A stretch of 64,000 bases of DNA from an uncultured Candidatus Saccharibacteria bacterium. Lineage in GTDB: Bacteria > Patescibacteriota > Minisyncoccia > Phycocordibacterales > UBA9973. This document shows positions 11,905 through 38,232 of the stretch, piece by piece. The notes below the pieces were generated by a model. It was not told the DNA's origin. It searched no databases and saw nothing but the letters and a program-made list of their open reading frames with translations. The number at the start of each line of letters is the position of its first letter. Position 1 is the first letter of the stretch. Both the position numbers and the translations under genes were made by a program. Location: the NCBI GenBank assembly GCA_964484005.1, contig CAZADR010000001.1, forward strand, positions 43,927 to 107,926. Direction: 5' to 3'.

Positions 11905-14900
11905 ATGCTCAAGAAACCATTTATAAAAAGATTACTTTTTTCAAGCTTTTTTGGTTTGTCGTTTTTCTTTGTGTTTTTCTTTTCTGCCGTTAATCCTGTT
12001 TCTGCTTTTGATTTTAATTTTGATCTAAACTCTACTACAATCAAAGCTTCCACTTTGTCTGCCAATTTATCAGAAAATGCTTGGGATTTTTATGTTGTTA
12101 ATGTGGTAGAGCCAACTAATAATGTTTTACAAGAAGTAATTAATTTTTTTCTAGATTCAAATACTTACCAAGTTGTTTTGCCAGAAACTCCACTCCAAAC
12201 AGTTACTTCTTTTTTAAACAATACTTATAACTCTTATAACAATTACATCTTAAGACCAGGCGTAGCAGCTATTGAAAAATCAAATGTAACTTTTACAAAA
12301 ATAACTGACAATATTACAGTACCCAAAATTAGTGTTCCCAAGGTGGGCATGGTAGCAAATGTATCAAGTATTATTGATGGTGTAAACAATTTCAGTAACA
12401 CTCTCTTTTCTCTCTACGACGAATATGTCATTGATCCTTTGGCACAATTGTGGGGAGGGATATTTTTTAATATTTCAAATAATTTAAACAAAGTACCGCC
12501 AACATCGGTAGTAAAAATAGAAACTCCTCCAGCCAAAACAGAGATAGAGCCTAAGCCTCTATCTGGGTCTCCAATAGTTTACCTAAACAATAATCCTTCA
12601 ACCAATCGAGGTCTACAGGGTCCTCAAGGAATACAAGGACCAATGGGGCCACAAGGACCCACTGGCGAGAGAGGTTCATCTGGGAGTGACGGTAATACGA
12701 TAGACACCTCTTCCTTCGTCTCTGAAACTGATTTTGATAATCAAGTAAATGCCCTCTTAAATTCTATTGAAAATGGTCTGTCAGGTTTGTCTGAATCTAT
12801 CTCTGAAGAAGTCAATACAGATTTACTGACAGTAGCAGGCAATGCCACTATCGGTGGAGATTTGATGGTCAATGGGCAAGGAATATTTACCCGAGTTCCC
12901 ACTCTGGCTCATGCCTTCGCTCCTTCATGGCCACTCGGTGTTTCTAATGTTGCCGATGCCACTCTCTACATTAATCCTGCTTCTTCAGTAGCAAGTGGCA
13001 ACTTGATTGGCGCTGCCATAAACGGCACAGTAAAATTCATCGTTGATGCTGACGGAAATGTTTATGCCAATAATATGATCCTAAATGGGAGCGTCACTAG
13101 TGGCGCGACGACTGTTTCCAGTTTGTCGGTGTTGGACAATACTATCCTAGGAGATGCTGGCGTAGATACGATTACGGTAAATGGCAGAATTAATTCTGAT
13201 TTAACCTTTACGACTGACAACACCAATGATATCGGAGCAAGCGGTGTTAACAGAGCTAGGACTGGATATTTTGGTACTTCCATAATTTCTCCTGTAGTCA
13301 ATGCCACCACCGGCGTGCAAATTGCAGGTGCCGCCACGACCGGCACAATCCTGCGTGGCAACGGTACAAATTATGTGCCTACCACCGCCACTTTTGCTGA
13401 TACATACACAGCCAGCAATTTGCTCTATTCCAACGGCGCGAATACTGTTGCCGGTTTAGCGACGGCTAATAGCGGAGTCTTGGTTACTAATTCAACCGGA
13501 GTGCCATCTATTTTAGGTTCTATGACCAACGGTCAATTAGTGGTCGGCTCAACCGGCGCGACTCCTGTTTTGGCAACAATTACCGGTACCACCGATCAAA
13601 TCGTCGTTACTAATGGCGCGGGCACAATTACTCTTTCTATTCCGCAAAGCATTAATACCACTTCTACTCCACAATTTGCCAGATTGGGGGTCGGAGTCGC
13701 GGCGGACGCTACCAATATTCTGACCGCCACCTCCGCTTCCGCCACCGACCTTTCTAAAACTTTAAATATAACTCACACCGGAGCAATTACTGGTACAGGT
13801 TATGCCGGATACTTTACAAAAACTGGAGTATCTACAACAAATGTCGGCCTTTATGCTACTGCAACGGGAGCTACAAATAATTATGCGGCGATATTTGAGA
13901 ACGGCAACGTCGGCATCGGGACGACGAATCCGGGGGCGAAGTTGTCAATCAACACTGATTATTGGAATAACGCATATTTTCCCGCTGGTACGGTTATCGG
14001 TGCATATTTAGGTGCAGCGTATGCAGGATTTTTTGCTAGTGGTGCGGGCGATACTTCTAGAATAACATTAGGAAATGGAGGAACTGGGTATCAGAGTTAT
14101 ATAGAAAATTTAGCGGGAGGAGCTGGTAGTCTTAGTATTGTCAATAACAATGGCCCTGTTTTGTTTAGTGGAACCGGCAACGTCGGCATCGGGACGACGG
14201 CACCAGTTCAAAAACTTGATATGGTGGTTGGGGCGGGAGATGGTACTCAAAATGAAGCTGTTGGTATCCGCTTACGAAATACTTCTGTTGTTGGTAATAC
14301 AAACACTTTACAAATAGGTCTTAATTCTACATTTAATGCTGGTGCAGCACAGCCAGGCTATGGTTACCTTCAATCAGTTTATTGGGGAGGAAGTGTCAAT
14401 GCCCTGATTTTGAATCCTCAAGGTGGTCCAGTTACAGTTGGAACTGCTACTGATTTTAATCCAGGAGGATTTTTAGTAAAGGGAATTACTTTAGTTTCTT
14501 CTCCTACTCGTGCTGGAAATACTTTAATGGGAGGACTAGGTTTTACACATGGAGCAGGATATACACCTATTTCCGCTTCCATTTATGGAATCTATGATAA
14601 ATCTGTATGGTCTCAAGGTGCGGGTTTAGTATTTAATACAGTTTCAGGGGCAGATATTTCAGGTTCATCTGGTGTCGAGAGAATGAGAATTAGCTCAGAC
14701 GGCAACGTCGGCATCGGGACGACGGGGCCAGGGTCTCATCTTCAGATTGACGGTAATATTTCAGCAGCATCTTGGACTACCGATGGTATAGCTTTTGATT
14801 CTAACGCCGCCACTTTCACAGACACCAGTACAGCCGGAGCAGGAACTGTAGCCGTAAGAACCGCTAACAGTTTCGGAGCACCAACTTTCGCATCTACAAA

Positions 14901-15906
14901 CGCAATCACAGTAACTGACGCCTTCACTTTATATGTTCCCAAACCAATCGCTGGAACAAACACCACTATTACCAGAGCCAACTCTGCTTACTTTGAGGGG
15001 AATGTCGGGATTGGTCAAGTAGCACCAGCTTACGCCCTAGACGTCCTAGCCACCGGTACCGGAGTCATTGCTAGATTCAATAGTACCAATGCTACCGGTT
15101 GTACATTAGCTGATGGAGGAACCATCACCTGTACTTCAGATGTCAGAATGAAGAAAAACATAGAAGATATTACTTATGGTCTAGAAACCATCAAAGGTTT
15201 AAGACCCGTCTTATTCAATTGGAAATATGAAGATGATACTACTTCAAAAAACCTCGGTTTCATCGCTCAAGAAGTGGAAGCCCTAGTACCCAAACTCATC
15301 GCTACTGACGAAAACGGCATGAAGTCTTTAAATACCACCGCTATGATTCCTATTTTAACCAAAGCCATACAAGAAATGAATCTAAATCTTGAAGGAGTTG
15401 CAGGTACGATTACTCCGCTCGAAGCCTCTCCTAATGAATCTTTTGTCACTACTTTTTTTGATAATTTATTTAGCAAAGTTACCGTTTGGCTCGCTGATGC
15501 GGGGAATGGAATTGGTAAGATATTTACAACCGAAGTGGAAACCAAAAATCTCTGCGTCTCGGATGATAGCGGAGAAAAAACATGTATTACAAAATCACAG
15601 CTCGATGCCTTACTTTTAAATGCAACCGTCAGCCCTGCACCTGTGCCAGTACCCGAACCAATACCGGACCCTGTTCCAACTCCAACTCCAACTCCAACTC
15701 CTGATCCAACACCATTACCAGATCCTGTACCTGTAGTACCTCCGACATGTACTCTGCCTCAAGTCTTAGATACAACCACGAATACTTGCGTAGATCCCGC
15801 GCCAGTAATTCCGACTTGCACCCTGCCTCAAATTTTAGAAAATAATGTTTGTGTAGATCCTGTACCAACTCCACCTGCTGACACCACACCGCCAGTAACG
15901 CCATAA
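11905..15906 (+). CDS. Giant secreted tail-fibre-like surface protein with a collagen-like Gly-X-Y segment, repeated GNVGIGTT beta-structure units, a C-terminal peptidase_S74 intramolecular-chaperone autoprocessing domain, and a Pro/Thr-rich Cys-containing tail
   Basis: Signal peptide present. GLQGPQGIQGPMGPQGPTGERGSSGSDG is collagen-like. NVGIGTT(N/A/G)P recurs four times. SDVRMKKNIEDITYGLETIKGLRPVLFNW...GFIAQEVEALVP matches the endosialidase/tail-spike chaperone domain (S74). The C-terminus is PAPVPVPEPIPDPVPTPTPTPTPDP plus a TCTLPQ(V/I)L...C(V)DP motif twice. Confidence 0.85.
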   Translation: MLKKPFIKRLLFSSFFGLSFFFVFFFSAVNPVSAFDFNFDLNSTTIKASTLSANLSENAWDFYVVNVVEPTNNVLQEVINFFLDSNTYQVVLPETPLQTVTSFLNNTYNSYNNYILRPGVAAIEKSNVTFTKITDNITVPKISVPKVGMVANVSSIIDGVNNFSNTLFSLYDEYVIDPLAQLWGGIFFNISNNLNKVPPTSVVKIETPPAKTEIEPKPLSGSPIVYLNNNPSTNRGLQGPQGIQGPMGPQGPTGERGSSGSDGNTIDTSSFVSETDFDNQVNALLNSIENGLSGLSESISEEVNTDLLTVAGNATIGGDLMVNGQGIFTRVPTLAHAFAPSWPLGVSNVADATLYINPASSVASGNLIGAAINGTVKFIVDADGNVYANNMILNGSVTSGATTVSSLSVLDNTILGDAGVDTITVNGRINSDLTFTTDNTNDIGASGVNRARTGYFGTSIISPVVNATTGVQIAGAATTGTILRGNGTNYVPTTATFADTYTASNLLYSNGANTVAGLATANSGVLVTNSTGVPSILGSMTNGQLVVGSTGATPVLATITGTTDQIVVTNGAGTITLSIPQSINTTSTPQFARLGVGVAADATNILTATSASATDLSKTLNITHTGAITGTGYAGYFTKTGVSTTNVGLYATATGATNNYAAIFENGNVGIGTTNPGAKLSINTDYWNNAYFPAGTVIGAYLGAAYAGFFASGAGDTSRITLGNGGTGYQSYIENLAGGAGSLSIVNNNGPVLFSGTGNVGIGTTAPVQKLDMVVGAGDGTQNEAVGIRLRNTSVVGNTNTLQIGLNSTFNAGAAQPGYGYLQSVYWGGSVNALILNPQGGPVTVGTATDFNPGGFLVKGITLVSSPTRAGNTLMGGLGFTHGAGYTPISASIYGIYDKSVWSQGAGLVFNTVSGADISGSSGVERMRISSDGNVGIGTTGPGSHLQIDGNISAASWTTDGIAFDSNAATFTDTSTAGAGTVAVRTANSFGAPTFASTNAITVTDAFTLYVPKPIAGTNTTITRANSAYFEGNVGIGQVAPAYALDVLATGTGVIARFNSTNATGCTLADGGTITCTSDVRMKKNIEDITYGLETIKGLRPVLFNWKYEDDTTSKNLGFIAQEVEALVPKLIATDENGMKSLNTTAMIPILTKAIQEMNLNLEGVAGTITPLEASPNESFVTTFFDNLFSKVTVWLADAGNGIGKIFTTEVETKNLCVSDDSGEKTCITKSQLDALLLNATVSPAPVPVPEPIPDPVPTPTPTPTPDPTPLPDPVPVVPPTCTLPQVLDTTTNTCVDPAPVIPTCTLPQILENNVCVDPVPTPPADTTPPVTP

Positions 15907-16020
15907 AAAACATATTTTTGTATCACGAATAGCAGGTTGAACGTCCAAAAACACGGAAAGTAATGATATTTTAACCCCCGTGGGTCGTGATATGGTGCAA
16001 AACTGTGGTATAATATAAAA

Positions 16021-16380
16021 ATGGAAAAAGATGACGAAGTTGAATTACCTACGATTAATTGGCTTCCTCCTGATACCCCTCTGCAACAAACGATCGGAGA
16101 AAGTCGCATAGCGGACGCTTGTCAATATTGTAACTCTAAAAATTTCGTCAAGCGGGGCACTCGCCAGAATCAATATCAAAGTGTCCAGCTTTATTTGTGC
16201 AAAAATGAAGAATGTGGTCGCACTTTTACCGCACAAGACGTGAAAGGCAAACATTTTCCGTTGAATGTGGTGATTGAGGCTATGAGTTATTATAATCTTG
16301 GATTTTCATTAGAAGAAACTTGTAGGATTATAAAAAAGAAATTCAACGTAGCTCCGGATGCTGCGACTCTTGGAAGCTGA
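16021..16380 (+). CDS. Zinc-ribbon plus HTH protein with IS1 InsA-like architecture
   Basis: CQYC-x16-LYLCKNEEC zinc ribbon followed by a helix-turn-helix (VIEAMSYYNLGFSLEETCRII). GC content is about 45% against about 30% in the flanks. It ends at a TGA that is in frame with the next ORF. Confidence 0.55.
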   Translation: MEKDDEVELPTINWLPPDTPLQQTIGESRIADACQYCNSKNFVKRGTRQNQYQSVQLYLCKNEECGRTFTAQDVKGKHFPLNVVIEAMSYYNLGFSLEETCRIIKKKFNVAPDAATLGS

Positions 16381-16416
16381 GTAGACGAATACAAAGAACT
16401 TTGTCGCTATGAACGT

Positions 16417-17283
16417 TTGCGTCCATATGCAATAAAAATGTGCCAGCCAAAAGATACGATTGAAGTCGTCTCTATGGCGCATCGGCAACTTTACCGTTTT
16501 CGTTATCATCGTCCGAAAACCGCCCTAATGTTGACGGAATTTAAAAATCGCAACCTTCGTCGTTTGCAAGAATATTTGAACGCGGTTTCGAGTGAGACAC
16601 CGCACCAATATTTTCAGGACGGTGAGCGCATGAGCGATGTGCGGAGTAAGTTTAGCACCGCAGATATGATTGTAAAATCAAAAAATAATTATGCGAATCG
16701 ATTGGCAAAATTCGTCTTGCAGACGGTTTCTGAAAATAAGGCTCGCCATGAGGCGCTCCAGCGGTTTTTTATTGCGAATGATTCCTGTACGGTGGCGACG
16801 GAAGTGCCGGTGTATATCAGGAGAGAAGATGTGGAACATATGGAAAACGTGCTGAAGTTTAAGGTTGTCGGAGAGAGTGGACTTGAGTTTAAAGGGAAAA
16901 AAGAGGGACAGCTGCCAAAAGGCAATTCAACATCGGCAGCTCTACGCAGCCTACCTCGGCTGCTAACTGGACACATTGATCTTGTGCAGATAAGGAATGG
17001 TCAAGTTCACATTATGGATTACAAGCCGAATGCGGCTAAAGAGCGCCCCATCGAACAGCTCACATGGTATGCGTTAGCGCTTTCACGCCTCACCGGTCTG
17101 CGGCTTTTTGAATTCACTTGCGCCTGGTTTGATGAAAAAGATTATTACCAATTTTTTCCGTTGCATGTGGTAAAAAAATTGCAAACTAAAGCAATAAAAC
17201 CACGGAAGCGTATAATAAACTTTAAAGATGGCACTAAAGTCGAGGTACCGAGGGAAAATCCGGGGAAAGTCATAATTGTTTAA
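16417..17283 (+). CDS. RecB/Cas4-like PD-(D/E)xK nuclease-domain protein
   Basis: The C-terminal half carries GHIDLV (D), MDYK (D-x-K) and QLTWYALAL (QxxxY), in the order typical of RecB-family nuclease domains. It shares a frame with 16021-16380, separated by a single TGA. GC is elevated. Confidence 0.5.
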   Translation: MRPYAIKMCQPKDTIEVVSMAHRQLYRFRYHRPKTALMLTEFKNRNLRRLQEYLNAVSSETPHQYFQDGERMSDVRSKFSTADMIVKSKNNYANRLAKFVLQTVSENKARHEALQRFFIANDSCTVATEVPVYIRREDVEHMENVLKFKVVGESGLEFKGKKEGQLPKGNSTSAALRSLPRLLTGHIDLVQIRNGQVHIMDYKPNAAKERPIEQLTWYALALSRLTGLRLFEFTCAWFDEKDYYQFFPLHVVKKLQTKAIKPRKRIINFKDGTKVEVPRENPGKVIIV

Positions 17284-21257: not shown

Positions 21258-21295
21258 AAAATCCCCCACTTTTGGTAGGGGATTTTCGTTTTTTA
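21258..21295 (+). terminator. Rho-independent terminator
   Basis: aatccccc-acttttggta-ggggatt followed by ttcgtttttt. Confidence 0.5.
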
Positions 21296-21297
21296 CA

Positions 21298-21709
21298 GGT
21301 ATCTATAAGCCGAATTTTGTATTTAATGCCAAAGCATTATAGATAGCAATTTATCTAGGCCTGAAATTGCTCTCAGGCTCAAGCGATTCTCCCCCACACC
21401 TTTCGGAATGATGCGCATTTGCGCGTTGCTTTTAGCAACTTCATTCTGAAAGGTGTGGGGGCACGATCTTGCACAGAGGTAAGGGTTTAGCCGTTTCACC
21501 CTTCGACTTCGCTCAGGGCAAGCCCTAAGTTTATATGAAGATTTATCCATTTCTGGATACCCTAACCCTTTCGAGTTAAGACGTCTCTGCTCGCACCTAT
21601 GTATCACTACATACGGGGGTTACCCGCTACCATTCCCATCTCTTTCGAGACTCGCTGTGTTCGGACTTTCCTCTATATAGCTTGCGCCATATAGTAGCTA
21701 TCCGATACC
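21298..21709 (-). ncRNA. rnpB: RNase P RNA, bacterial type A, with an extended perfect hairpin insertion
   Basis: The minus strand carries AGGAAAGTCCGAAC (P4 5' strand), AGCGGGTAACCCCCG, AAGGGTGAAACGGC, GCTTGAG and GCAATTTCAGGCCTAGATAAATTGC (the CCUAGAUGAAUG region), and ACAAAATTCGGCTTA (P4 3' strand). A P1 pairing ggtatc/gatacc joins the ends. Confidence 0.8.
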
Positions 21710-21816
21710 TGCAAGGGTATTATACAACGCTTGCTTTATTTATTCAAGTATGATATACTATGTTTGTGAGTGTGAGGTTGTTCTCACATTTTTAAATAGA
21801 CAACATAAGTGCCGCA

Positions 21817-25022: not shown

Positions 25023-25096
25023 TCCGGGGTAGCTCAGCGGTAGAGCGGTCGCCTGTTAAGCGATTGGTCGTAGGTTCGATCCCTACCCCCGGAGCA
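25023..25096 (+). tRNA. tRNA-Asn (anticodon GUU); serves as an integration site
   Basis: TCCGGGGTAGCTCAGCGGTAGAGCGGTCGCCTGTTAAGCGAT...GTAGGTTCGATCCCTACCCCCGGAGCA. The last 14 nt overlap the 3' end of the serine recombinase ORF on the opposite strand. Confidence 0.9.
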
Positions 25097-26642
25097 ATGT
25101 TTTGTATTTAGTGCTATTTTCACTTTTTACCTTACTGGTATTAGGTTTTTTGAGTTCGAATTTATTTTGAGCGTCAATTCTCTCTTGAATCCTCTTTGAA
25201 ATCTTTTTTACTGAACTCTTTAAAACAGTATCAGCTTTCTTGTCTTTCAAGATTAGGTTCGCGAAAATGTGAGATAAGAGCAACCGGCGTTCTTCTGGGC
25301 TTCTCTTTTCGTATATTTCTCTGGCCCGGCGTGCGAGATCCAAGATGTTTATATACAACTCAAAATATTTTGTTTCCTCGTTCTTCAACTTGGTTATTTG
25401 ATTTTGGATTTCAGCTTGCTCGGTGTTTATCTCTTTCTGCTTCGCTTCCCACCTTTCTTGGGTTATTTTTTCGGACAATCTGTCATTGTAGAGTATATCC
25501 AGTTGCCTCTGTAAAGCGTTATAGCGAAGATCTAGGGCTTTAAGAGTATTTTCCTTGTATTCGGATTCTAGCTTATGATCTGCCTTAATTTTGTCCCTTA
25601 TGAGGTCTGCCTCTTTTTCAGTTATATTCTCAAAGAAACGGAATGCTCCTATCAAGGAAACATCCAGATCAGTTTCTTTAGTCATTCCTTTTTGGGAACA
25701 GGGCCGGTTGTGTTTGCAAGAATAATAAACAATTCCTTTTTGTATCTCACCACTTATTGAACCTCCACATTCTCCACACTCAATCATTTTACTGAACTGA
25801 AAGGTATGTCTTTTGTAATGCGGTGATTTACCTCGTGTAAGTGTAAATTGCACCTTATCAAAAAGCTCCTTCGATACCAACGGTTCGTGCTTTCCGTTAT
25901 GCACAAAATCGTTCCATCTTAATAATCCCATATAAAATGGGTCGCGTAGTATATCTTCCAATCTACTCTTTGAGAGCTTACTACCATTTCTAGTTCTTAA
26001 TCCATCCTCATATAATTTTTCCCGCAAACCAGTTAGAGAGTAATTTCTGGTTGCGTAATACTCAAATGCTTTCTTGATAAAGCGACTTTTATCTTCATCT
26101 ATGATATGAATTTTGTGTCCCTTTTCACCGATCGTTTTATATCCTATTGGAGGTTTTGCCGGTAGCCATCCCTGTGCAATTTTTTCTTTCTGACCCTTTT
26201 TAACTTCTTCCGAAAGATTAGAAATATACTTCTTCGCAAGGACTATTTCAATATCCCAACGAAACTTCTCGTCTGATTTGGCGTATCTGTGTATTACTAG
26301 ATTTTGTTTCACGAAATGTATCTGGTGTTTTTCGTCTGCCTCTATCCAATCATTCGCAGTTATTGCGTCCACAAAATTTCTTGTAAGACGATCCACCTTT
26401 TCACAAAGTAAAATAGGAACATCTTTCTTTTTTAGATATTCCATCATTTCCCCGAATATCTTTCTTTGCTTTGCGCCACTAGCAGATTCTGCCGGAGCGA
26501 ATGACCTAACTACCTCAAAACCTTTCCTGTTTGCATATTCTACAAGCAACTTCTCTTGGGAGGGCAAAGAATAACCAGTTTCTTCTTGTTCCTTTGAGGA
26601 TACTCTGCAATAAATTACGCATTTGATTCTAGTTAGATTCAT
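25083..26642 (-). CDS. Large serine recombinase (integrase), copy 1; C-terminus encoded within the tRNA-Asn 3' end
   Basis: VIYCRVSSKEQEETGYSLPSQ catalytic Ser region. DRLTRN. C-terminal zinc-ribbon and coiled-coil typical of large serine recombinases. The stop codon TAG lies at 25083-25085 inside the tRNA. Confidence 0.85.
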   Translation of the reverse strand: MNLTRIKCVIYCRVSSKEQEETGYSLPSQEKLLVEYANRKGFEVVRSFAPAESASGAKQRKIFGEMMEYLKKKDVPILLCEKVDRLTRNFVDAITANDWIEADEKHQIHFVKQNLVIHRYAKSDEKFRWDIEIVLAKKYISNLSEEVKKGQKEKIAQGWLPAKPPIGYKTIGEKGHKIHIIDEDKSRFIKKAFEYYATRNYSLTGLREKLYEDGLRTRNGSKLSKSRLEDILRDPFYMGLLRWNDFVHNGKHEPLVSKELFDKVQFTLTRGKSPHYKRHTFQFSKMIECGECGGSISGEIQKGIVYYSCKHNRPCSQKGMTKETDLDVSLIGAFRFFENITEKEADLIRDKIKADHKLESEYKENTLKALDLRYNALQRQLDILYNDRLSEKITQERWEAKQKEINTEQAEIQNQITKLKNEETKYFELYINILDLARRAREIYEKRSPEERRLLLSHIFANLILKDKKADTVLKSSVKKISKRIQERIDAQNKFELKKPNTSKVKSENSTKYKTLLRG

Positions 26643-30041: not shown

Positions 30042-30201
30042 AATAAGCTGTATCTTAACATTTTGGGCTTAAAAAATATACTGAAATTGGGTTTCTGGCA
30101 AAATCTCAAAAAATTGCAATAAGACAAGAGTAATTATATAATTATTGGATAACTTAATAAGAAAGACCTAAACCCTGTGGATGGCCTTAAAACTATAGGA
30201 T

Positions 30202-30316
30202 ATGGTCGCAAAGTCGGATCACGCATAAAGAACCCATCGCAGGGTTGCGTGATCCGCCATATCGGGAAACCGGTATGAGAGGTTTCGGCCTCTACCTGTG
30301 GTGGGCTTTTTGTTTT
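30202..30316 (+). ncRNA. Candidate structured RNA element A (unknown family), ending in a U-tract 12 nt before the ATG at 30328
   Basis: Nested hairpins ggatcacgc/gcgtgatcc and aaccc/gggtt, a GAAA-tetraloop hairpin cgg-gaaa-ccg, and agagg/cctct, followed by gggctttttgtttt. It is homologous to element B at 37884-37999, with compensatory substitutions in each stem. Confidence 0.35.
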
Positions 30317-30327
30317 AGTAAAATTAT

Positions 30328-31344
30328 ATGAAAAAATTCTGGCAAATATCGAAAATAGCAATAGCAAGTATAGCAATATTTTCATTTCTCGTTCTTGTAT
30401 TTTTAGTTATTATTGTTTGGGATGATACTGACACAGAAACATCACAAAATGCGGATTTTTTAGCTAAACAACAAGAAGCACTTAATAAAGCAATAGATGA
30501 GATCGAAACAAAATCAAATCTAGAAACAGATGAATTAAAGAAAGAGATTGAAAATTTAAAAAGTAAAACCACCAAACAAACTCAAAACCAACAACAAGCT
30601 AATAATAACATTGCTGAATTAAAGAATGAGTTAAAATCCACTGATGCTTTAGTTAATGAAAATTATGACGAACAATCTGATGTTGTCTTAGATTCCATTG
30701 CTAAAGTTGCTTGTTTTTTAACTAAAAATAAGACCATTTTTGGTTCGGGTTCAGTATGGGGCGTAGGTGATGATTATTATTTAGTTACCAATAAACACGT
30801 TTTAGAAGAAGCAGATAGAGAAGATGAAAGTTGCGCTATATCGATTGCTAGAGATTGGAATGCAGTGGCTAATGATGTTGAAAAGGCCTATCAAGATGAT
30901 AACTTACTTATATATAGTTTAGACCTGAATTATACCTATTGGGAGATAGATGGGTTTGATTTTGCAATCACTAAAATAATTGAAGATAAGCAACCACTCT
31001 CTTTTCTCGATGATATTGCGATGGAAACAAATGAGACTGAGTGTAATGAGAATTTAGGGGTTGGAGAAAAAATAAAAATTATAGGATTTCCTTATACTAG
31101 TTCTGTTGCTCTACCCACTATTACAGAAGGAATTATTTCAAGTTTTGAGTATATTGGTGATAGTAGTTACTATATAACATCTGCAAAAATTGAACACGGA
31201 AATTCTGGCGGAATGGCGGTAACTAATAACTATCATTGTCTGATAGGTATACCCTCTGCTGTTGTTGTCGGTGATTCAGAGAGTTTAGGAAGGATTCTTG
31301 TTTTAACAGAGAAAGATTTAAAAACTCTTTTTGATCAGATTTAG
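30328..31344 (+). CDS. Membrane-anchored trypsin-like (S1 family) serine protease with an N-terminal transmembrane helix and coiled-coil
   Basis: LVTNKHV (His), a conserved Asp, and the GNSGG (HGNSGGMAV) Ser motif. Confidence 0.65.
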   Translation: MKKFWQISKIAIASIAIFSFLVLVFLVIIVWDDTDTETSQNADFLAKQQEALNKAIDEIETKSNLETDELKKEIENLKSKTTKQTQNQQQANNNIAELKNELKSTDALVNENYDEQSDVVLDSIAKVACFLTKNKTIFGSGSVWGVGDDYYLVTNKHVLEEADREDESCAISIARDWNAVANDVEKAYQDDNLLIYSLDLNYTYWEIDGFDFAITKIIEDKQPLSFLDDIAMETNETECNENLGVGEKIKIIGFPYTSSVALPTITEGIISSFEYIGDSSYYITSAKIEHGNSGGMAVTNNYHCLIGIPSAVVVGDSESLGRILVLTEKDLKTLFDQI

Positions 31345-32188: not shown

Positions 32189-32357
32189 AAATTAGCTAAT
32201 GCAATGAAATACTACTTTAAAAAATTTCTATACTTTACCATAATGATCGCATTTTTCTATATGACTTTTTATATTCTCGGTGGATGGGCGTTATTTTTTT
32301 GGGTGCCTTTTATATTTTATCAATTAGAGTAATTAAGTATCTAGTTCTAAAAATTAT

Positions 32358-32711
32358 ATGGAAAACAATGATAAAAAAATGTGGGGTCTTGAATCAGATA
32401 CATATGATAAATTGGCAAGTAGTCATTCTAGGGCAAATATATTTTTATGGATTGTTGGGGGCTTAATATACAATTTTTTTAATGGCGATTTAATAAGTTT
32501 GTCATCTGTCTTAGTTGTTTTCCCCGGCATATTTATTGCTTCTTTTGCTTCAATTCCAACCTTCTGGGTTAATGTTAAAAAAATGCAGATACTCCAAAAA
32601 ACAAATAATATACTAGTGCTAATAGGATTCACTATTTGGTATGCGGTTGATCTTATTTTTCCAATTCTAATGAGTATTCTATTTATCAAGTTTATTAGTT
32701 TGTTTAATTAA
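32358..32711 (+). CDS. Hypothetical membrane protein
   Basis: ORF with multiple transmembrane segments. Confidence 0.35.
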   Translation: MENNDKKMWGLESDTYDKLASSHSRANIFLWIVGGLIYNFFNGDLISLSSVLVVFPGIFIASFASIPTFWVNVKKMQILQKTNNILVLIGFTIWYAVDLIFPILMSILFIKFISLFN

Positions 32712-33680: not shown

Positions 33681-35345
33681 TTAATACGCTAAAAGTGACT
33701 TTATTTCAGCCAATGCTATACTAGGAAAAGGATATTCTTCGAGCCAATTTATAGTTCGAAAGTCGTCCACAATACCGAGCAATGTTTTGTATTTATAGTC
33801 AAAATCAGACTTTTGTATTGGAGATACAAGGCTTTTTTGTAGTTCGTAGACTTCATTTAGCTTAGGAATCCATTCAAGCAGATATTTGCATGCTAAATTG
33901 TAATTTGGCTTTATTTCATTTACGTTTTGTGCGAAGTTCGTAAATAATTGAGCAAACAATAACCTCTTTTCATCTGTAAGTGCTTGCTCGTAAATTTCTT
34001 TAGCCTTGAAAGCTAATTCGTGGATTATTAAACGCAACTCTTGGTAATCATCGCTTTGGCTAACAACTTTTTCAAGCGTAGATTCAAGGGCATCTTCTTC
34101 AGTTTTACATTCAGCAATCTTTCTTTCGCAATATTCAAGTGGTACTTCTTTGTTTATTGTTGCCTCAAAATATTTATCTTTCTGTTTTCTTATGCTTGTG
34201 AGTAGCCCATTCAGTCTTTGAATTTCAGTTTCCCTTAACTTCACATTCTCAGCATTTTCTTCCAAGATAATTCCTTCAATCCATTTTAGTACCGCTTCAT
34301 TCTTAGGGGCTATTTTAAAGAATACGGGGTCTACCTGCTTTTCTACTTCTTCCTCCTTGATATAGGTCTTTTTGGTGCAATGACGAGATTTTAAGTGGTT
34401 ATTACAATGTCCATAAAGAATACCTTTTTGTGTTTCCCAGCTCAATACTCCGCCACAACCATCACAAAAGATTTTTCCTTGAAATAAATAATTGTGCTTG
34501 GTGGTAATAACATTTTTACCTCTTCTTTTAAGAACACTTTGTGCTTTCTCAAATAAGTCTTTGGTAATTAAAGGCTTGTGTTTTGCTGGGTATATTTCAC
34601 CTTTCCATTTCATTTTGCCATAGTAGAATGGGTCTTGAAGTAATTCATAGATTCTACTTTGTAAAACTTTATTTCCATTTGTTGAACGAAGCCCCGTTTT
34701 ATACATTTCATCCTCAAGACTTTGTATAGAATAGTTTCCCGTAGCATATAGCTCAAACATTTTTCTAATATGCGGAGCAACCCCATCATCAATCACATGT
34801 ATTTTGTGTCCTTTGTCCCCAATAGTTTTATATCCAGTTGGTGGTTTGGTTGGCAACCATCCTTGTGCTATTTTTTCTTTCTGCCCCTTTTTCACTTCTT
34901 CGGAAAGGTTAGCTATATATTTCTTTGCAAGAACAATCTCAATATCCCAACGAAATTTTTCGTCCGATTTGGCATACTTGTGTATTACAAGGTTCTGCTT
35001 AACAAAGTGAAGCTGTCTTTCTTCATTAGCCTCAATCCAATCATTTGCTACGACTGCTTCCTTGAGGTTTCTGGTGAGTCGGTCAACTTTTTCACACAAA
35101 AGAATTTGAATATTATTTTTTCCCATATAGCCCATCATTTCAGCAAAGATTTTTCTTTGTTTTGTTCCACTTGCAGATTCTGCAACAGAAAAAGGTTTTG
35201 CCACTTCAAAACCTTTTCTATTTGCATATTCAATTAGTAATTTTTCTTGCGAGGGAAGCGAGTACCCCGTATCCTCTTGTTCTTTTGATGATACACGGCA
35301 ATAAATAACGGCTTTATTCTTTGTGTTTTTTATTTGAGTTTTCAT
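33681..35345 (-). CDS. Large serine recombinase (integrase), copy 2, full length
   Basis: VIYCRVSSKEQEDTGYSLPSQ...DRLTRN, roughly 60-70% identical to copy 1 over the catalytic domain. An internal site at 33777-33795 repeats the copy-1/tRNA junction sequence. Confidence 0.85.
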   Translation of the reverse strand: MKTQIKNTKNKAVIYCRVSSKEQEDTGYSLPSQEKLLIEYANRKGFEVAKPFSVAESASGTKQRKIFAEMMGYMGKNNIQILLCEKVDRLTRNLKEAVVANDWIEANEERQLHFVKQNLVIHKYAKSDEKFRWDIEIVLAKKYIANLSEEVKKGQKEKIAQGWLPTKPPTGYKTIGDKGHKIHVIDDGVAPHIRKMFELYATGNYSIQSLEDEMYKTGLRSTNGNKVLQSRIYELLQDPFYYGKMKWKGEIYPAKHKPLITKDLFEKAQSVLKRRGKNVITTKHNYLFQGKIFCDGCGGVLSWETQKGILYGHCNNHLKSRHCTKKTYIKEEEVEKQVDPVFFKIAPKNEAVLKWIEGIILEENAENVKLRETEIQRLNGLLTSIRKQKDKYFEATINKEVPLEYCERKIAECKTEEDALESTLEKVVSQSDDYQELRLIIHELAFKAKEIYEQALTDEKRLLFAQLFTNFAQNVNEIKPNYNLACKYLLEWIPKLNEVYELQKSLVSPIQKSDFDYKYKTLLGIVDDFRTINWLEEYPFPSIALAEIKSLLAY

Positions 35346-35521
35346 TTAGTTAGATTCTTGCCTACAAAGTTTTTAAAGGTTTTCTTGTCTATTCTGTATT
35401 CCTTGCCAAATTTATATGCTTTAAGTTTCCTTGCCCTTATATATCGGTAAATAGTTATTATATTTAGCTTCAGTATTTCCGCTAATTCTTCGGCTGTATA
35501 GAATTGCTCTTTTTTTCTCAT
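35342..35521 (-). CDS. Excisionase-family HTH protein (59 aa) overlapping the start of recombinase 2 by 4 nt (ATGA); not in the supplied ORF track
   Basis: Minus-strand translation MRKKEQFYTAEELAEILKLNIITIYRYIRARKLKAYKFGKEYRIDKKTFKNFVGKNLTK shows the Xis/MerR-like HTH_17 pattern (TxxEAAExLGVSxxTIYRxIxxGKLPAxRxGRxxRI). Confidence 0.5.
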   Translation of the reverse strand: MRKKEQFYTAEELAEILKLNIITIYRYIRARKLKAYKFGKEYRIDKKTFKNFVGKNLTK

Positions 35522-36207: not shown

Positions 36208-36478
36208 CCAATATTTACCTTGATAATAGTGATATTCACTCTTTTTTCTTTTGTTGAGATTAACCTAAAAATATATGTTGCTGAACATAATGGCTTCCTC
36301 AACGCCAACATCTTTTGCCACACTTTCACTAAAATAATATTTTTTTATATCATTGTTTTCCATATGTAATTAATGCTTTATGATGTAAACTATGCTTTTC
36401 TTTTTTCGTTTCTACATACACATCATTTAAGCTCATTTTTATTGCTTATAATAAAGAGGAGCTTCAAAAACAGGTACG

Positions 36479-36843: not shown

Positions 36844-37578
36844 TTAATGCACATTAAACCTCCAACTTGAGCTTTTATAACTTCCATCAAGTTCTTCTCT
36901 CATAAAAACTTTATCAGAGTAAAGAGGCTTTTTTAGTTCTTTGTTTAAATCGGATATATATTGACGAAGCGTTTTCTCTCTTTGCTTTGATTGCATTCCT
37001 AATATATCGTAAATCTCTTCCTCTCCCACTGTTTCGTATTCTGCTTCAATGAAAATTTTACATAATTTCTTTAATCTTTTTGGTAAGGTAATGATTTCAT
37101 CATGAATTCTTATCGTATCATCATTATAAAGCTCCAAATCCCCAACACTTTTTTCCCTCATAGGTATTCGTAAAGATAAATCAATGCCACTCTTATATAA
37201 GATTTCATCTGTCTGTTTTAATGTTAAAACACTTTTAAAAGACTGTTTGTATTTTCTTAATTTCTTTAAATTTACATTTATATAGGTAATAACAAAATCA
37301 TCAGTTTCAATACGGCTTCCGTCTTCATTATATATTGACCCCTTAGAATAATCGGACATGGCTGGAATAGGTGTTCTTGAAGTCATTTTTAAGATTTTTT
37401 GTTCTTCTAAATTCAATAAAAATGAAATGCATTCTGAACTCGGTAATTTGAATTCCCAAGTCATTAATTCATAGCCCCCTCTAGGATTATTTTTTCTACT
37501 TTCTTTTGGATAAAGAAGAACTTGCTCCTCAATAAAAGATAAAATTCTTAAACACTCTACGAATTTCTTCTGCTCCAT
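36844..37578 (-). CDS. Hypothetical protein (244 aa), element cargo
   Basis: ORF only. No motif recognised. Confidence 0.4.
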   Translation of the reverse strand: MEQKKFVECLRILSFIEEQVLLYPKESRKNNPRGGYELMTWEFKLPSSECISFLLNLEEQKILKMTSRTPIPAMSDYSKGSIYNEDGSRIETDDFVITYINVNLKKLRKYKQSFKSVLTLKQTDEILYKSGIDLSLRIPMREKSVGDLELYNDDTIRIHDEIITLPKRLKKLCKIFIEAEYETVGEEEIYDILGMQSKQREKTLRQYISDLNKELKKPLYSDKVFMREELDGSYKSSSWRFNVH

Positions 37579-37883
37579 TTCTAGATTGTATTACAAAAAG
37601 TTCTAAAATCCCACCATTTTTCAGATGAGTATATTCGGTGTATCCTCTTTCATTTGGGTGTCCTCCCCCCGTACCCCTTATCAAATAAGAATATTACTAA
37701 TAGTAAATATTAAAATATAGATGTCGTAATGTAAGCTGTATTTGCTTATAGAAAGGCTATAACAACCTCTTTAATGGTCTATAAACACGCTATAAACCCT
37801 TATTGATGGTAAATTTATAGAAAGGTGCTATTATTGTTTTATAACTTAATATAAGAGTAGCCTAAACTTTTGTAGACAAAAGC

Positions 37884-37999
37884 ATGGTGAACGAAGTCAG
37901 GTAATGCATAAAAAACCCTTCATGGGGTCGCATTACCTGCCGTACAGGGAAACTTGTATGAGAGACTTAGGTCTCTACCCGTGAGGGGCTTTTTGTTTG
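37884..37999 (+). ncRNA. Candidate structured RNA element B, homolog of element A
   Basis: Same architecture as A with covarying stems: aggtaatgc/gcattacct, cagg-gaaa-cttg, agagac/gtctct, then gggctttttgtttg. Confidence 0.35.
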
Positions 38000-38040
38000 C
38001 CAATTACGGAAATTATTAATGATAAACAAAATACAAATAT

Positions 38041-38232
38041 ATGGAAAAGGAAACTTTTGGTCAATTCTTGGGTCGTAACTGGTGGCTGTTGCTTATTAGT
38101 TTTATTCACATGCTGAGGAATGGTGAAGATTTTACAGGAGGCGAGAAATTATTACTTTTTATCATTACTGGTGGAATAATAATATTTCTAATGTTTCTTT
38201 ATTGGTCTTATCAAAATAAGAAAAATAATTAA
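38041..38232 (+). CDS. Small membrane protein
   Basis: ORF with 2 transmembrane helices. Confidence 0.3.
   Translation: MEKETFGQFLGRNWWLLLISFIHMLRNGEDFTGGEKLLLFIITGGIIIFLMFLYWSYQNKKNN

Follow-up and report, generated by a model that had tools for sequence, protein, structure and literature searches.

The window, as the whole stretch of 64,000 nucleotides analysed here is called, is chromosomal DNA that contains the genes for ProRS, Tgt and HisRS together with the RNase P RNA, and its HisRS is 86–90% identical to proteins named Nomurabacteria or Paceibacterota; judging from these sequences, the host is a Nomurabacteria-like member of the Patescibacteria (CPR). The 3' end of a tRNA-Asn gene (25023–25095) and the stop codon of LSR1 (25083–26642), a gene for a large serine recombinase, overlap, and two copies of a structured RNA of the LOOT family, LOOT-A and LOOT-B, lie farther to the right. 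A relative that lacks the island and has the same tRNA-Asn (L205) diverges from the window directly past the 3' end of this tRNA (25095), that is, 5 kb to the left of LOOT-A; its cardiolipin synthase is 67% identical, and synteny with the window is back only around 49.5 kb. Therefore, the DNA from 25.1 kb to beyond 45 kb is variable. It comprises a first module with LSR1 and genes of 185, 62 and 805 aa on the minus strand, LOOT-A, and then a trypsin-like gene and small genes on the plus strand, up to ~33.05 kb, and a second module with a 183-aa gene, LSR2 (33681–35345, minus strand; Pfam Resolvase, Recombinase and Zn_ribbon_recom), an HTH_17 gene beside it (35342–35521; Pfam HTH_17), small genes and a 244-aa gene on the minus strand, LOOT-B, and small genes on the plus strand. 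LSR1 and LSR2 are 49% identical, and a 19-nt match is common to the 3' ends of both genes. The window thus contains, at tRNA-Asn, an island with two recombinase-plus-LOOT modules in tandem, and each LOOT is internal to its module. The original prediction had described the two copies as bracketing the second recombinase block; they do flank the LSR2 block, but each of them belongs to a module of its own.

A scan with Rfam 15 gives full-length matches to RF03000 (LOOT RNA) at 37859–37976 (LOOT-B) and 30165–30293 (LOOT-A), both on the plus strand, with 76.4 bits (E = 1.3e-12) and 74.3 bits, respectively, against a gathering score of 46.4. In both cases positions 1–121 of the 121 positions of the model are aligned, and neither match is truncated. 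Moreover, the fold z-scores are −5.1 for LOOT-B and −4.4 for LOOT-A, with none of 200 shuffles equally good. The structured RNA that had been proposed at 37884–37999 is therefore confirmed by its RF03000 match and its fold, although its earlier start omits the P1 hairpin, because the Rfam match begins at 37859; the right-hand limit at 37999 stands as the end of the U-tract, beyond which a further, optional helix arm reaches 38009. The proposed distances to the neighbours also hold, since the minus-strand gene with its start at 37578 is ~280 nt away and the ATG at 38041 follows after 41 nt. Homology between the two copies is borne out by their common Rfam family and by a direct repeat of 105 nt found in a repeat search of the window (30211–30315 and 37894–37998), which shows a gap-free identity of 75%, while the column identity over the full elements in a MAFFT alignment is 80%; the earlier estimate of ~65% was consequently too low. 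As had also been predicted, the copies covary, since their alignment contains compensatory double changes (four in P3, one in P4 and one in P5) and no broken pair, the P3 arms being CGGAUCACGC/GCGUGAUCCG in one copy and CAGGUAAUGC/GCAUUACCUG in the other. Rfam identity, covarying helices and fold scores likewise speak, as in the earlier view, against simple att repeats. Element B, the second copy in the window, is a genuine member of the LOOT family and forms a self-contained cassette within an integrated, prophage-like mobile element.

LOOT-B begins with the P1 hairpin (37859–37889, plus strand, as all its parts; Rfam alignment positions 1–33), whose internal loop, CCUAAAC (37861–37867) opposite GCAUGG (37882–37887), is in upper case, that is, conserved, in the Rfam consensus, and which we take to resemble the 11-nt receptor of GAAA tetraloops (CCUAAG/UAUGG motif). 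P3 (37898–37939) has, according to folding and the Rfam alignment, a stem of 10 bp (37898–37907 with 37930–37939) that encloses an A-rich segment, L1 (37908–37915), and, in the apical loop, the 5' strand of a pseudoknot helix, S2a (37916–37926; CCCUUCAUGGG). It is followed by the P4 hairpin (37941–37960), with 8 bp and a GAAA tetraloop at 37949–37952, and by the P5 hairpin (37961–37976; AGAGAC UUAG GUCUCU), at which the Rfam model ends; both are supported by the Rfam alignment, folding and covariation. The 3' strand of the pseudoknot, S2b (37978–37988; CCCGUGAGGGG), which is also a putative terminator stem, pairs with S2a over 11 bp, two of them G-U, and leads to the U-tract (37990–37998; UUUUUGUUU), which was called as terminator-like and is an in-register complement of L1. 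Past it, GCCAAUUACGG (37999–38009) is the 3' arm of an optional helix, P6, which could pair with S2b in a read-through RNA. Upstream of the core lie an extended −10 element, TGCTATTAT (37826–37834; TG plus TATTAT), from which a promoter is deduced by alignment of TGnTAnnAT boxes, and a 5' motif, ATAACTTAATA (37841–37851; family consensus ACAAYTKAATA), at which transcription, and with it the RNA, probably begins. The first co-oriented gene past LOOT-B (38041–38232, plus strand) encodes 63 aa, belongs to no Pfam family and starts an operon of small proteins. LOOT-A with its terminator (30165–30316, plus strand; Rfam, folding and helix search) has the same parts on the same strand, with a −10 box at 30137–30142, the 5' motif at 30149–30159, P3 at 30215–30225 with 30246–30256, S2a at 30233–30243, S2b at 30295–30305 and a U-tract at 30307–30316, and the ATG of the next gene lies at 30328. 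Promoter, 5' motif, pseudoknot S2, U-tract and P6 are all outside the 121-position Rfam model. A small open reading frame that starts from an AUG in the P3 loop was considered and dropped, the AUG being absent in LOOT-A.

Relatives were searched with a pattern derived from LOOT-A and LOOT-B. In one-genome-per-species contigs this pattern found at least 118 loci, ~111 of which were confirmed by a covariance model built from both copies, and Rfam itself confirmed 17 of 18 loci that were spot-checked; a narrower pattern, spanning the P4/P5 junction, found 63 further loci in metagenomes, and IMG/VR contributed five loci with the window-derived pattern. At least ~175 related loci, mostly of Patescibacteria, are thus at hand; since the pattern derives from the window and the loci are the matches listed, the proportions of loci given here are indicative only, and the collected loci may cover just one branch of the LOOT family. 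Among the matches listed, Patescibacteria overwhelm (Saccharibacteria, Paceibacterota/Parcubacteria and Microgenomates groups), and a few come from Dependentiae, Chlamydiae, Melainabacteria and others. Most of the relatives lie in MAGs of Patescibacteria, from sites that include groundwater and lakes, and Hainich groundwater sets are among the sources of the metagenome loci.

The secondary structure is strongly maintained in the family. Over 94 sequences, the 31 pairs of the core helices are paired in 98.3% of cells, 25 of these pairs show double changes, and the covariation score is 0.71 versus 0.20 in shuffles. Past P5, LOOT loci share the conserved sequence ACCYGUGGYGGGCUUUUUG, which is explained by its pairing with the P3 apical loop. 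The resulting helix S2, which averages 10.6 bp between cognate loop and tail, has a mean score of 9.5 for cognate partners, in comparison with 5.6 for non-cognate and 4.5 for shuffled ones, and in 88 distinct sequences its seven outer pairs are paired in 98.5% of cells, all seven with double changes, with a covariation of 0.62 that compares with 0.21 after shuffling and no more than 0.15 with a slid partner. S2 crosses P3 and is therefore a pseudoknot. In the window copies, the distal part of P3 (P3b) could form only 3–4 bp, as against ~8 bp in the Rfam consensus, and cmscan marks several non-canonical positions in it; the bases of P3b pair with the 3' tail as S2 instead. The P3b hairpin and S2 cannot form at the same time.

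The distance from the end of S2b to the T-run is 0–1 nt in 93 of 100 loci, and 1 nt in LOOT-B; S2, which ends at the T-run, is therefore placed as the stem of an intrinsic terminator. In LOOT-B, S2 is a G+C-rich stem directly before a U-tract, as expected of such terminators, and termination activity is predicted on this basis. The local hairpin immediately 5' of the LOOT-B U-tract is weak and, therefore, termination would need the long-range helix to form co-transcriptionally. A U-tract follows the core in 113 of the 116 loci examined. In related loci, L1 and the U-tract pair in register at 83–97% of positions, with G-C covariation in some lineages (e.g., ACAGAAAA with CUUUCUGU), and thus the U-tract may have a structural part besides signalling termination. 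P3 and a complete L1/U-tract helix seem to exclude each other on steric grounds, which implies that alternative conformations exist. In P6, the tail could pair instead with the segment just past the U-tract; a P6-type helix is significant in 34 of 113 loci (~30%), and in LOOT-B it has 6 contiguous bp (p = 0.06). By an eye count, many of the loci in which the first gene's leader repeats the P3 5' arm (see below) also have a P6 arm, and both together permit a nested alternative fold.

The 5' side is equally regular. In the alignment of the loci listed, TGnTAnnAT boxes occur at a constant distance 5' of LOOT in ~110 loci, i.e., in nearly all of them. A scan with the sigma-70 consensus was uninformative (44 sites versus 39 expected). 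The motif ACAAYTKAATA is found in 77 loci, 5–6 nt past the −10 box and, in all of them but two, 0–11 nt from the Rfam core. In the loci with the motif, no base-pairing partner for it was found, as the best helices were scattered and had no consistent position. Judged by these elements, the LOOT-B RNA probably starts near 37841.

The genetic context of LOOT is also recurrent and consists of a tRNA gene, a large serine recombinase gene on the minus strand whose stop codon is overlapped by the 3' end of the tRNA, LOOT on the plus strand and a co-oriented gene. Large serine recombinases lie within 4 kb upstream in 38 of the 66 loci with enough sequence and downstream in 4 of 41, and 56 of 57 upstream recombinases are on the strand opposite to LOOT; tRNA genes are found upstream in 48 cases and downstream in three. 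In at least 13 loci, the 3' end of the tRNA and the stop codon of the recombinase overlap, by 10–40 nt and most commonly by 12 nt. LOOT is usually single per locus, 0.06–4.8 kb downstream of the divergent recombinase and directly before a co-oriented gene. Among the loci listed, the first gene past LOOT is co-oriented in 92 of 103, usually starting 30–90 nt past the Rfam core. Families of neighbouring genes include DNA methylase, terminase-like, AAA_25 and HTH proteins. LOOT thus sits in a family of tRNA-integrating, prophage-like elements and, given the co-oriented cargo, the divergent recombinase and the tRNA layout, is the first feature of a rightward unit. Antisense overlap of LOOT with the recombinase mRNA was considered and rejected, since the usual spacers of 150–190 nt fit a separate leftward promoter. 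Guidance by the RNA to the tRNA, as in bridge RNAs, was also rejected, because the longest matches of LOOT or its P3 arms average 6.9 nt with cognate and 7.0 nt with non-cognate tRNAs.

On these grounds, LOOT-B could be a leader or attenuator that controls the cargo operon in cis and, at the same time, gives rise to a stable RNA of ~155 nt, a reading that we favour and to which we give an even chance of being correct. Transcription would start near 37841 from the extended −10 promoter at 37826–37834, and the nascent RNA would fold P1, P3, P4 and P5, with the GAAA tetraloop of P4 docking on the receptor-like loop of P1 and probably compacting the fold. The apical loop of P3 and the 11 nt after P5 would then form S2, the stem of an intrinsic terminator that runs into the U-tract. 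With the full fold in place, the polymerase would stop at ~37995–37998 and release the compact ~155-nt RNA, whereas late formation of S2 would let transcription proceed into the cargo operon from 38041. LOOT would thus be the leader, or gate, of the rightward, lysogeny-type cargo genes of the element. An element-encoded protein, a second RNA or a ligand might modulate the fold, or it might not be modulated at all. Nevertheless, a gene for a constitutive small RNA with a leaky terminator would look alike.

It is also conceivable, with a clearly lower probability, that LOOT is a free-standing, trans-acting small RNA with its own promoter and terminator and with targets elsewhere, so that its position before a gene would be incidental. 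The promoter and the terminator themselves are consistent with such an RNA, as are the Rfam class ("Gene; sRNA"), the occurrence of near-identical LOOT cassettes in unrelated flanks and the mutually unrelated genes downstream. The proteins encoded directly past LOOT form many clusters that are unrelated to one another; most are small membrane or secreted proteins, and no functional class is common to them. However, a free-standing RNA would not be expected to share its orientation with the next gene in 92 of 103 loci or to lie so close to the start codon. Moreover, the gap between LOOT and the gene is too short for a separate promoter in ~18 loci, including LOOT-A (30316 to the ATG at 30328), and, with no room for a second promoter, the downstream gene there must be reached by read-through. 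A conserved single-stranded seed with an identifiable target was not found in the family either, the 5' motif being partnerless.

Alternatively, the RNA might sense a ligand, as a riboswitch does, or act as a processive antitermination element at the start of the operon, like HK022 put; both options together seem improbable. The leaders of the fluoride, ZTP and preQ1 riboswitches are well-known cases in which a pseudoknot decides on terminator formation, and LOOT resembles them in having a promoter-proximal pseudoknotted fold, a U-tract and a gene in succession and a competition between local and long-range pairing. The compact fold with a tetraloop and a receptor-like loop, its location right behind a promoter and ahead of both a terminator and an operon, and the mutual exclusion of the P3b hairpin and S2 would all suit this kind of RNA. 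In contrast to those riboswitches, the pseudoknot helix of LOOT is itself the predicted terminator stem, and there is neither a consistent downstream function nor a candidate ligand. The genes downstream of LOOT loci do not share one pathway or function, which is atypical for a metabolite riboswitch, and first genes without a common functional class suggest no signal. In addition, no conserved unpaired core suitable as a binding pocket is conspicuous in the alignments inspected, apart from the A-rich L1, the GAAA tetraloop and the receptor-like loop, and, in a put-like action, the terminator to be overcome is not expected to be built from the RNA itself.

P3 behaves differently from the other helices. 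In the 94 sequences it is hypervariable and yet paired in 99.5% of cells, with double changes in all 10 pairs, and only ~5 of ~930 cells are G-U, whereas P1, P4, P5 and S2 are rich in G-U pairs. Two near-identical elements (L156 and L160) are 55% identical in the P3 arms and 97–100% identical elsewhere, and identical P3-arm alleles recur in different lineages. Furthermore, in 12 of 73 loci (~16%; p ≤ 0.01), the leader of the first gene contains a direct copy of the stretch that runs from the junction through the P3 5' arm into the beginning of L1; the same search in the inverted control orientation gave 0 of 73. This copy is placed just 5' of the start codon, and its sequence is locus-specific and matches the P3 of its own locus. 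In the window it is borderline for LOOT-B (p = 0.07) and not found for LOOT-A, and P3-arm copies elsewhere in the loci occur at chance level only and inside coding regions.

Immunity RNAs of prophages, namely c4 of P1 and P7 and CI of P4 (Rfam C4 family), derive from the leader of the operon that they precede, and direct repeats of one of their arms lie upstream, in the precursor, and by the start of the first gene. LOOT resembles them as an operon-leader RNA in a prophage-like context, with a variable region that might carry specificity and, in a minority of loci, an arm repeat near the first-gene start. By analogy, LOOT might be an immunity or specificity RNA whose P3 3' arm pairs with the leader copy of the P3 5' arm and blocks translation, either in cis or in an incoming related element, but we consider this reading doubtful. 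The leader copies, with their orientation and their match to their own P3, argue for it, and so do the hypervariable and nearly G-U-free P3, the difference between L156 and L160 that lies mainly in P3, the P3 alleles shared across lineages, the P6 arms seen by eye in many leader-copy loci and the apparent exchange of LOOT cassettes among unrelated elements. Nevertheless, LOOT has no similarity in sequence or structure to c4 or CI, and the target copy is missing in most loci, LOOT-A among them, and borderline in LOOT-B. The putative antisense strand would be locked in a perfect hairpin of 10–11 bp, that is, in a stable helix. The duplicated stretch exceeds the helix and would suit a duplication or a shared binding site equally well, and target copies elsewhere in the loci are not above chance.

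Exchange of LOOT between elements is suggested by the pairs of LOOT sequences that are at least 93% identical, since nine of the 12 have unrelated flanks on both sides, with identity collapsing right past the U-tract. Together with a contig from the source samples (L002), these pairs leave a residual hint of a connection with recombination. In exact-protein look-ups of the flanking genes, the contigs of the source samples were 100% identical to the window, except for this one, in which a tRNA-Asp is fused directly to a LOOT that differs from LOOT-A in P1–P4 and is identical to it from P5 onward, a mosaic that switches at the P4/P5 boundary; a metagenome scan for a 5' part of this type gave no match. 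LOOT or its edges might be an att-like or cassette-exchange site for the serine recombinase, with the two copies delimiting a mobile segment, which had been put forward as a possibility in the original prediction. The tight linkage to large serine recombinases, the mosaic of L002, the sharp edge past the U-tract of near-identical cassettes and the fact that P3 is a perfect inverted repeat in DNA are in keeping with it. We regard it nevertheless as very improbable, because recombinase attachment would take place kilobases away, at the tRNA 3' end and the recombinase stop codon, the region marked by the 19-nt match. The boundary between host and element, where attL and attR would be expected, lies at the 3' end of tRNA-Asn (25095) and not at LOOT, and LOOT shares no sequence with the target tRNA. 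In the window, neither a second tRNA-Asn 3' end nor an inverted P' arm nor the empty-site flank of L205 was found.

Moreover, nearly every locus has LOOT as a single, undamaged element in an internal position, and the left end of the island is the tRNA and recombinase stop, so that the idea of the two copies as att-associated ends of one island is not supported. Hybrid attL and attR sites would not be expected to have perfect P3 stems, as both copies in the window do. A recombinant of the window copies, with the P4 side of one and the P5 side of the other, was not recognised in the source-sample contigs, and none was noted among the 63 metagenome loci found with the P4/P5-junction pattern. The G-U pairs outside P3 lie on the plus strand only and, together with the GAAA tetraloop, are features at the level of RNA; the pseudoknot is another RNA feature that argues against a recombination site. 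LOOT-B is an RNA element and very probably no attachment site. A looser parallel exists with integrons, whose platform consists of a divergent integrase, a promoter, a recombination site and variable cassettes. LOOT loci share with it the divergent recombinase, a sharp-edged conserved element with a promoter and the variable cargo, but in LOOT loci the complete element is inserted at a tRNA by a large serine recombinase, what is conserved is an RNA, and the repeat search of the window showed no attC-like repeats between the cargo genes.

The behaviour of P3 and the near-identical LOOT elements in unrelated flanks hint at a role in specificity or immunity. Thus, we tentatively suggest, as an idea that is considerably more likely to be wrong than right, that LOOT could be an exchangeable specificity module, for immunity or incompatibility, of widespread serine-recombinase elements of Patescibacteria. 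P3 would set recognition through a matching site at the cargo or first-gene start or through a cognate factor, and the cassettes would be swapped at their sharp edges, possibly in a site-specific manner.

To our knowledge, neither a host nor a function of LOOT was known before; the family was reportedly seen only in marine metagenomes, from unassigned organisms, and was presumed to be a small RNA. The window copies have the features of RF03000, namely P1 with CCUAAAC/GCAUGG, a long P3, P4 with its GAAA loop and P5, and they differ in lying on a Patescibacteria chromosome within a serine-recombinase element and in their short P3b. The LOOT motif was introduced by Weinberg et al. 2017 (PMC5737381), whose main text carries no discussion of it, and a later work lists LOOT with about 43 bp, six helices and many cross-covariations (PMC7657543). 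In the searchable literature, a scope that leaves aside the supplement of the original description, we found no mention of a CPR host for LOOT, of its place in recombinase elements, of its cis arrangement or of a terminator formed by the pseudoknot.

LOOT, which belongs to the numerous orphan structured RNAs, is a known but uncharacterised family, to which are added here a host group, the Patescibacteria or CPR, and a home in tRNA-integrating large serine recombinase elements with phage-like genes. Its fixed position in the element, as the first feature of the rightward cargo, and a fuller structure, with promoter, 5' motif and a pseudoknot that doubles as predicted terminator stem, are added as well, and LOOT thereby becomes a testable regulatory element of mobile DNA. 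We know of almost nothing on gene regulation or phage biology in CPR bacteria. If RNA-based immunity were true, the behaviour of P3 and the exchange of LOOT cassettes would be of wider interest.

The structured RNA LOOT (Rfam RF03000), which is present in the window as the two plus-strand copies LOOT-A and LOOT-B, recurs among its relatives as near-identical cassettes that share 93–98% identity from the CCUAAAC half of the P1 internal loop to the U-tract, and in 9 of 12 such pairs both flanks are completely unrelated. The set includes L218, L237, L262, L171, L255, L228, and L250, among other loci, and within the pairs the break occurs directly past GGGCTTTTTG. L218 and L252, each with a LOOT match, belong to one metagenome contig (C687J50192_1000169, 35.7 kb); their stretches may overlap or represent a second two-copy contig.

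A mosaic arrangement is found in contig L002, whose positions 1–260 (ENA ERZ27247817 k141_866511) were compared with window positions 30130–30340. In this contig, a LOOT variant that has neither the promoter nor the CCUAAAC half of P1 begins 4 nt past a tRNA-Asp; its P1–P4 region is unlike that of LOOT-A, and from P5 onward the sequence is that of the window, through the trypsin-like gene downstream of LOOT-A and up to LOOT-B. The end of contig L202, which comes from that sample too, is placed by extrapolation close to where the trypsin-like gene begins, a short way downstream of LOOT-A; beside L002, this suggests that two variants coexist in the sample. The P3 helix (30215–30225/30246–30256 in LOOT-A and 37898–37907/37930–37939 in LOOT-B) is hypervariable, yet only about 5 of 930 cells are G–U across the window copies and 94 relatives, and every other LOOT helix differs in this respect.

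Elsewhere in the window, a class A RNase P RNA on the minus strand (21290–21713) reaches only 116.8 bits, where the gathering score is 100, and contains large insertions; the low score and the insertions fit a divergent RNase P of Patescibacteria. A 1333-aa ORF (11905–15906, plus strand), for which no NCBIfam match was obtained, lies within a stretch with a G+C content of 0.43–0.47 (13000–17000), compared with about 0.33 in the rest of the window.

Around the large serine recombinase LSR2, a 24-nt inverted repeat with 96% complementarity (32356–32379 and 36342–36365) flanks the recombinase block on both sides. One arm constitutes the start of a 117-aa gene (32358); the second, that of a minus-strand ORF of 32 aa, which looks like a truncated paralogue. 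In the recombinase–LOOT spacers of L034, L035, L101, L118, L143, L147, and L155, a conserved ATTAATGAC(A/G) is placed directly 5' of the recombinase start codon, followed in several of these loci by TGCATAG(T)CTATGCAGA, and may serve the recombinase gene as an operator or as a structured 5' UTR.

The 3' coding ends of LSR2 (33780–33798) and LSR1 (25092–25110), the recombinases of the two tandem modules, share the 19-nt stretch GAGCAATGTTTTGTATTTA, whose region encodes ...KYKTLL in both proteins. The LSR1 stop codon falls within a tRNA-Asn gene (25023–25095), and the LSR2 frame runs 31 codons further, into non-tRNA sequence. GAGCAATGTTTTGTATTTA is a candidate for the core or an arm of the attachment sites of LSR1 and LSR2.
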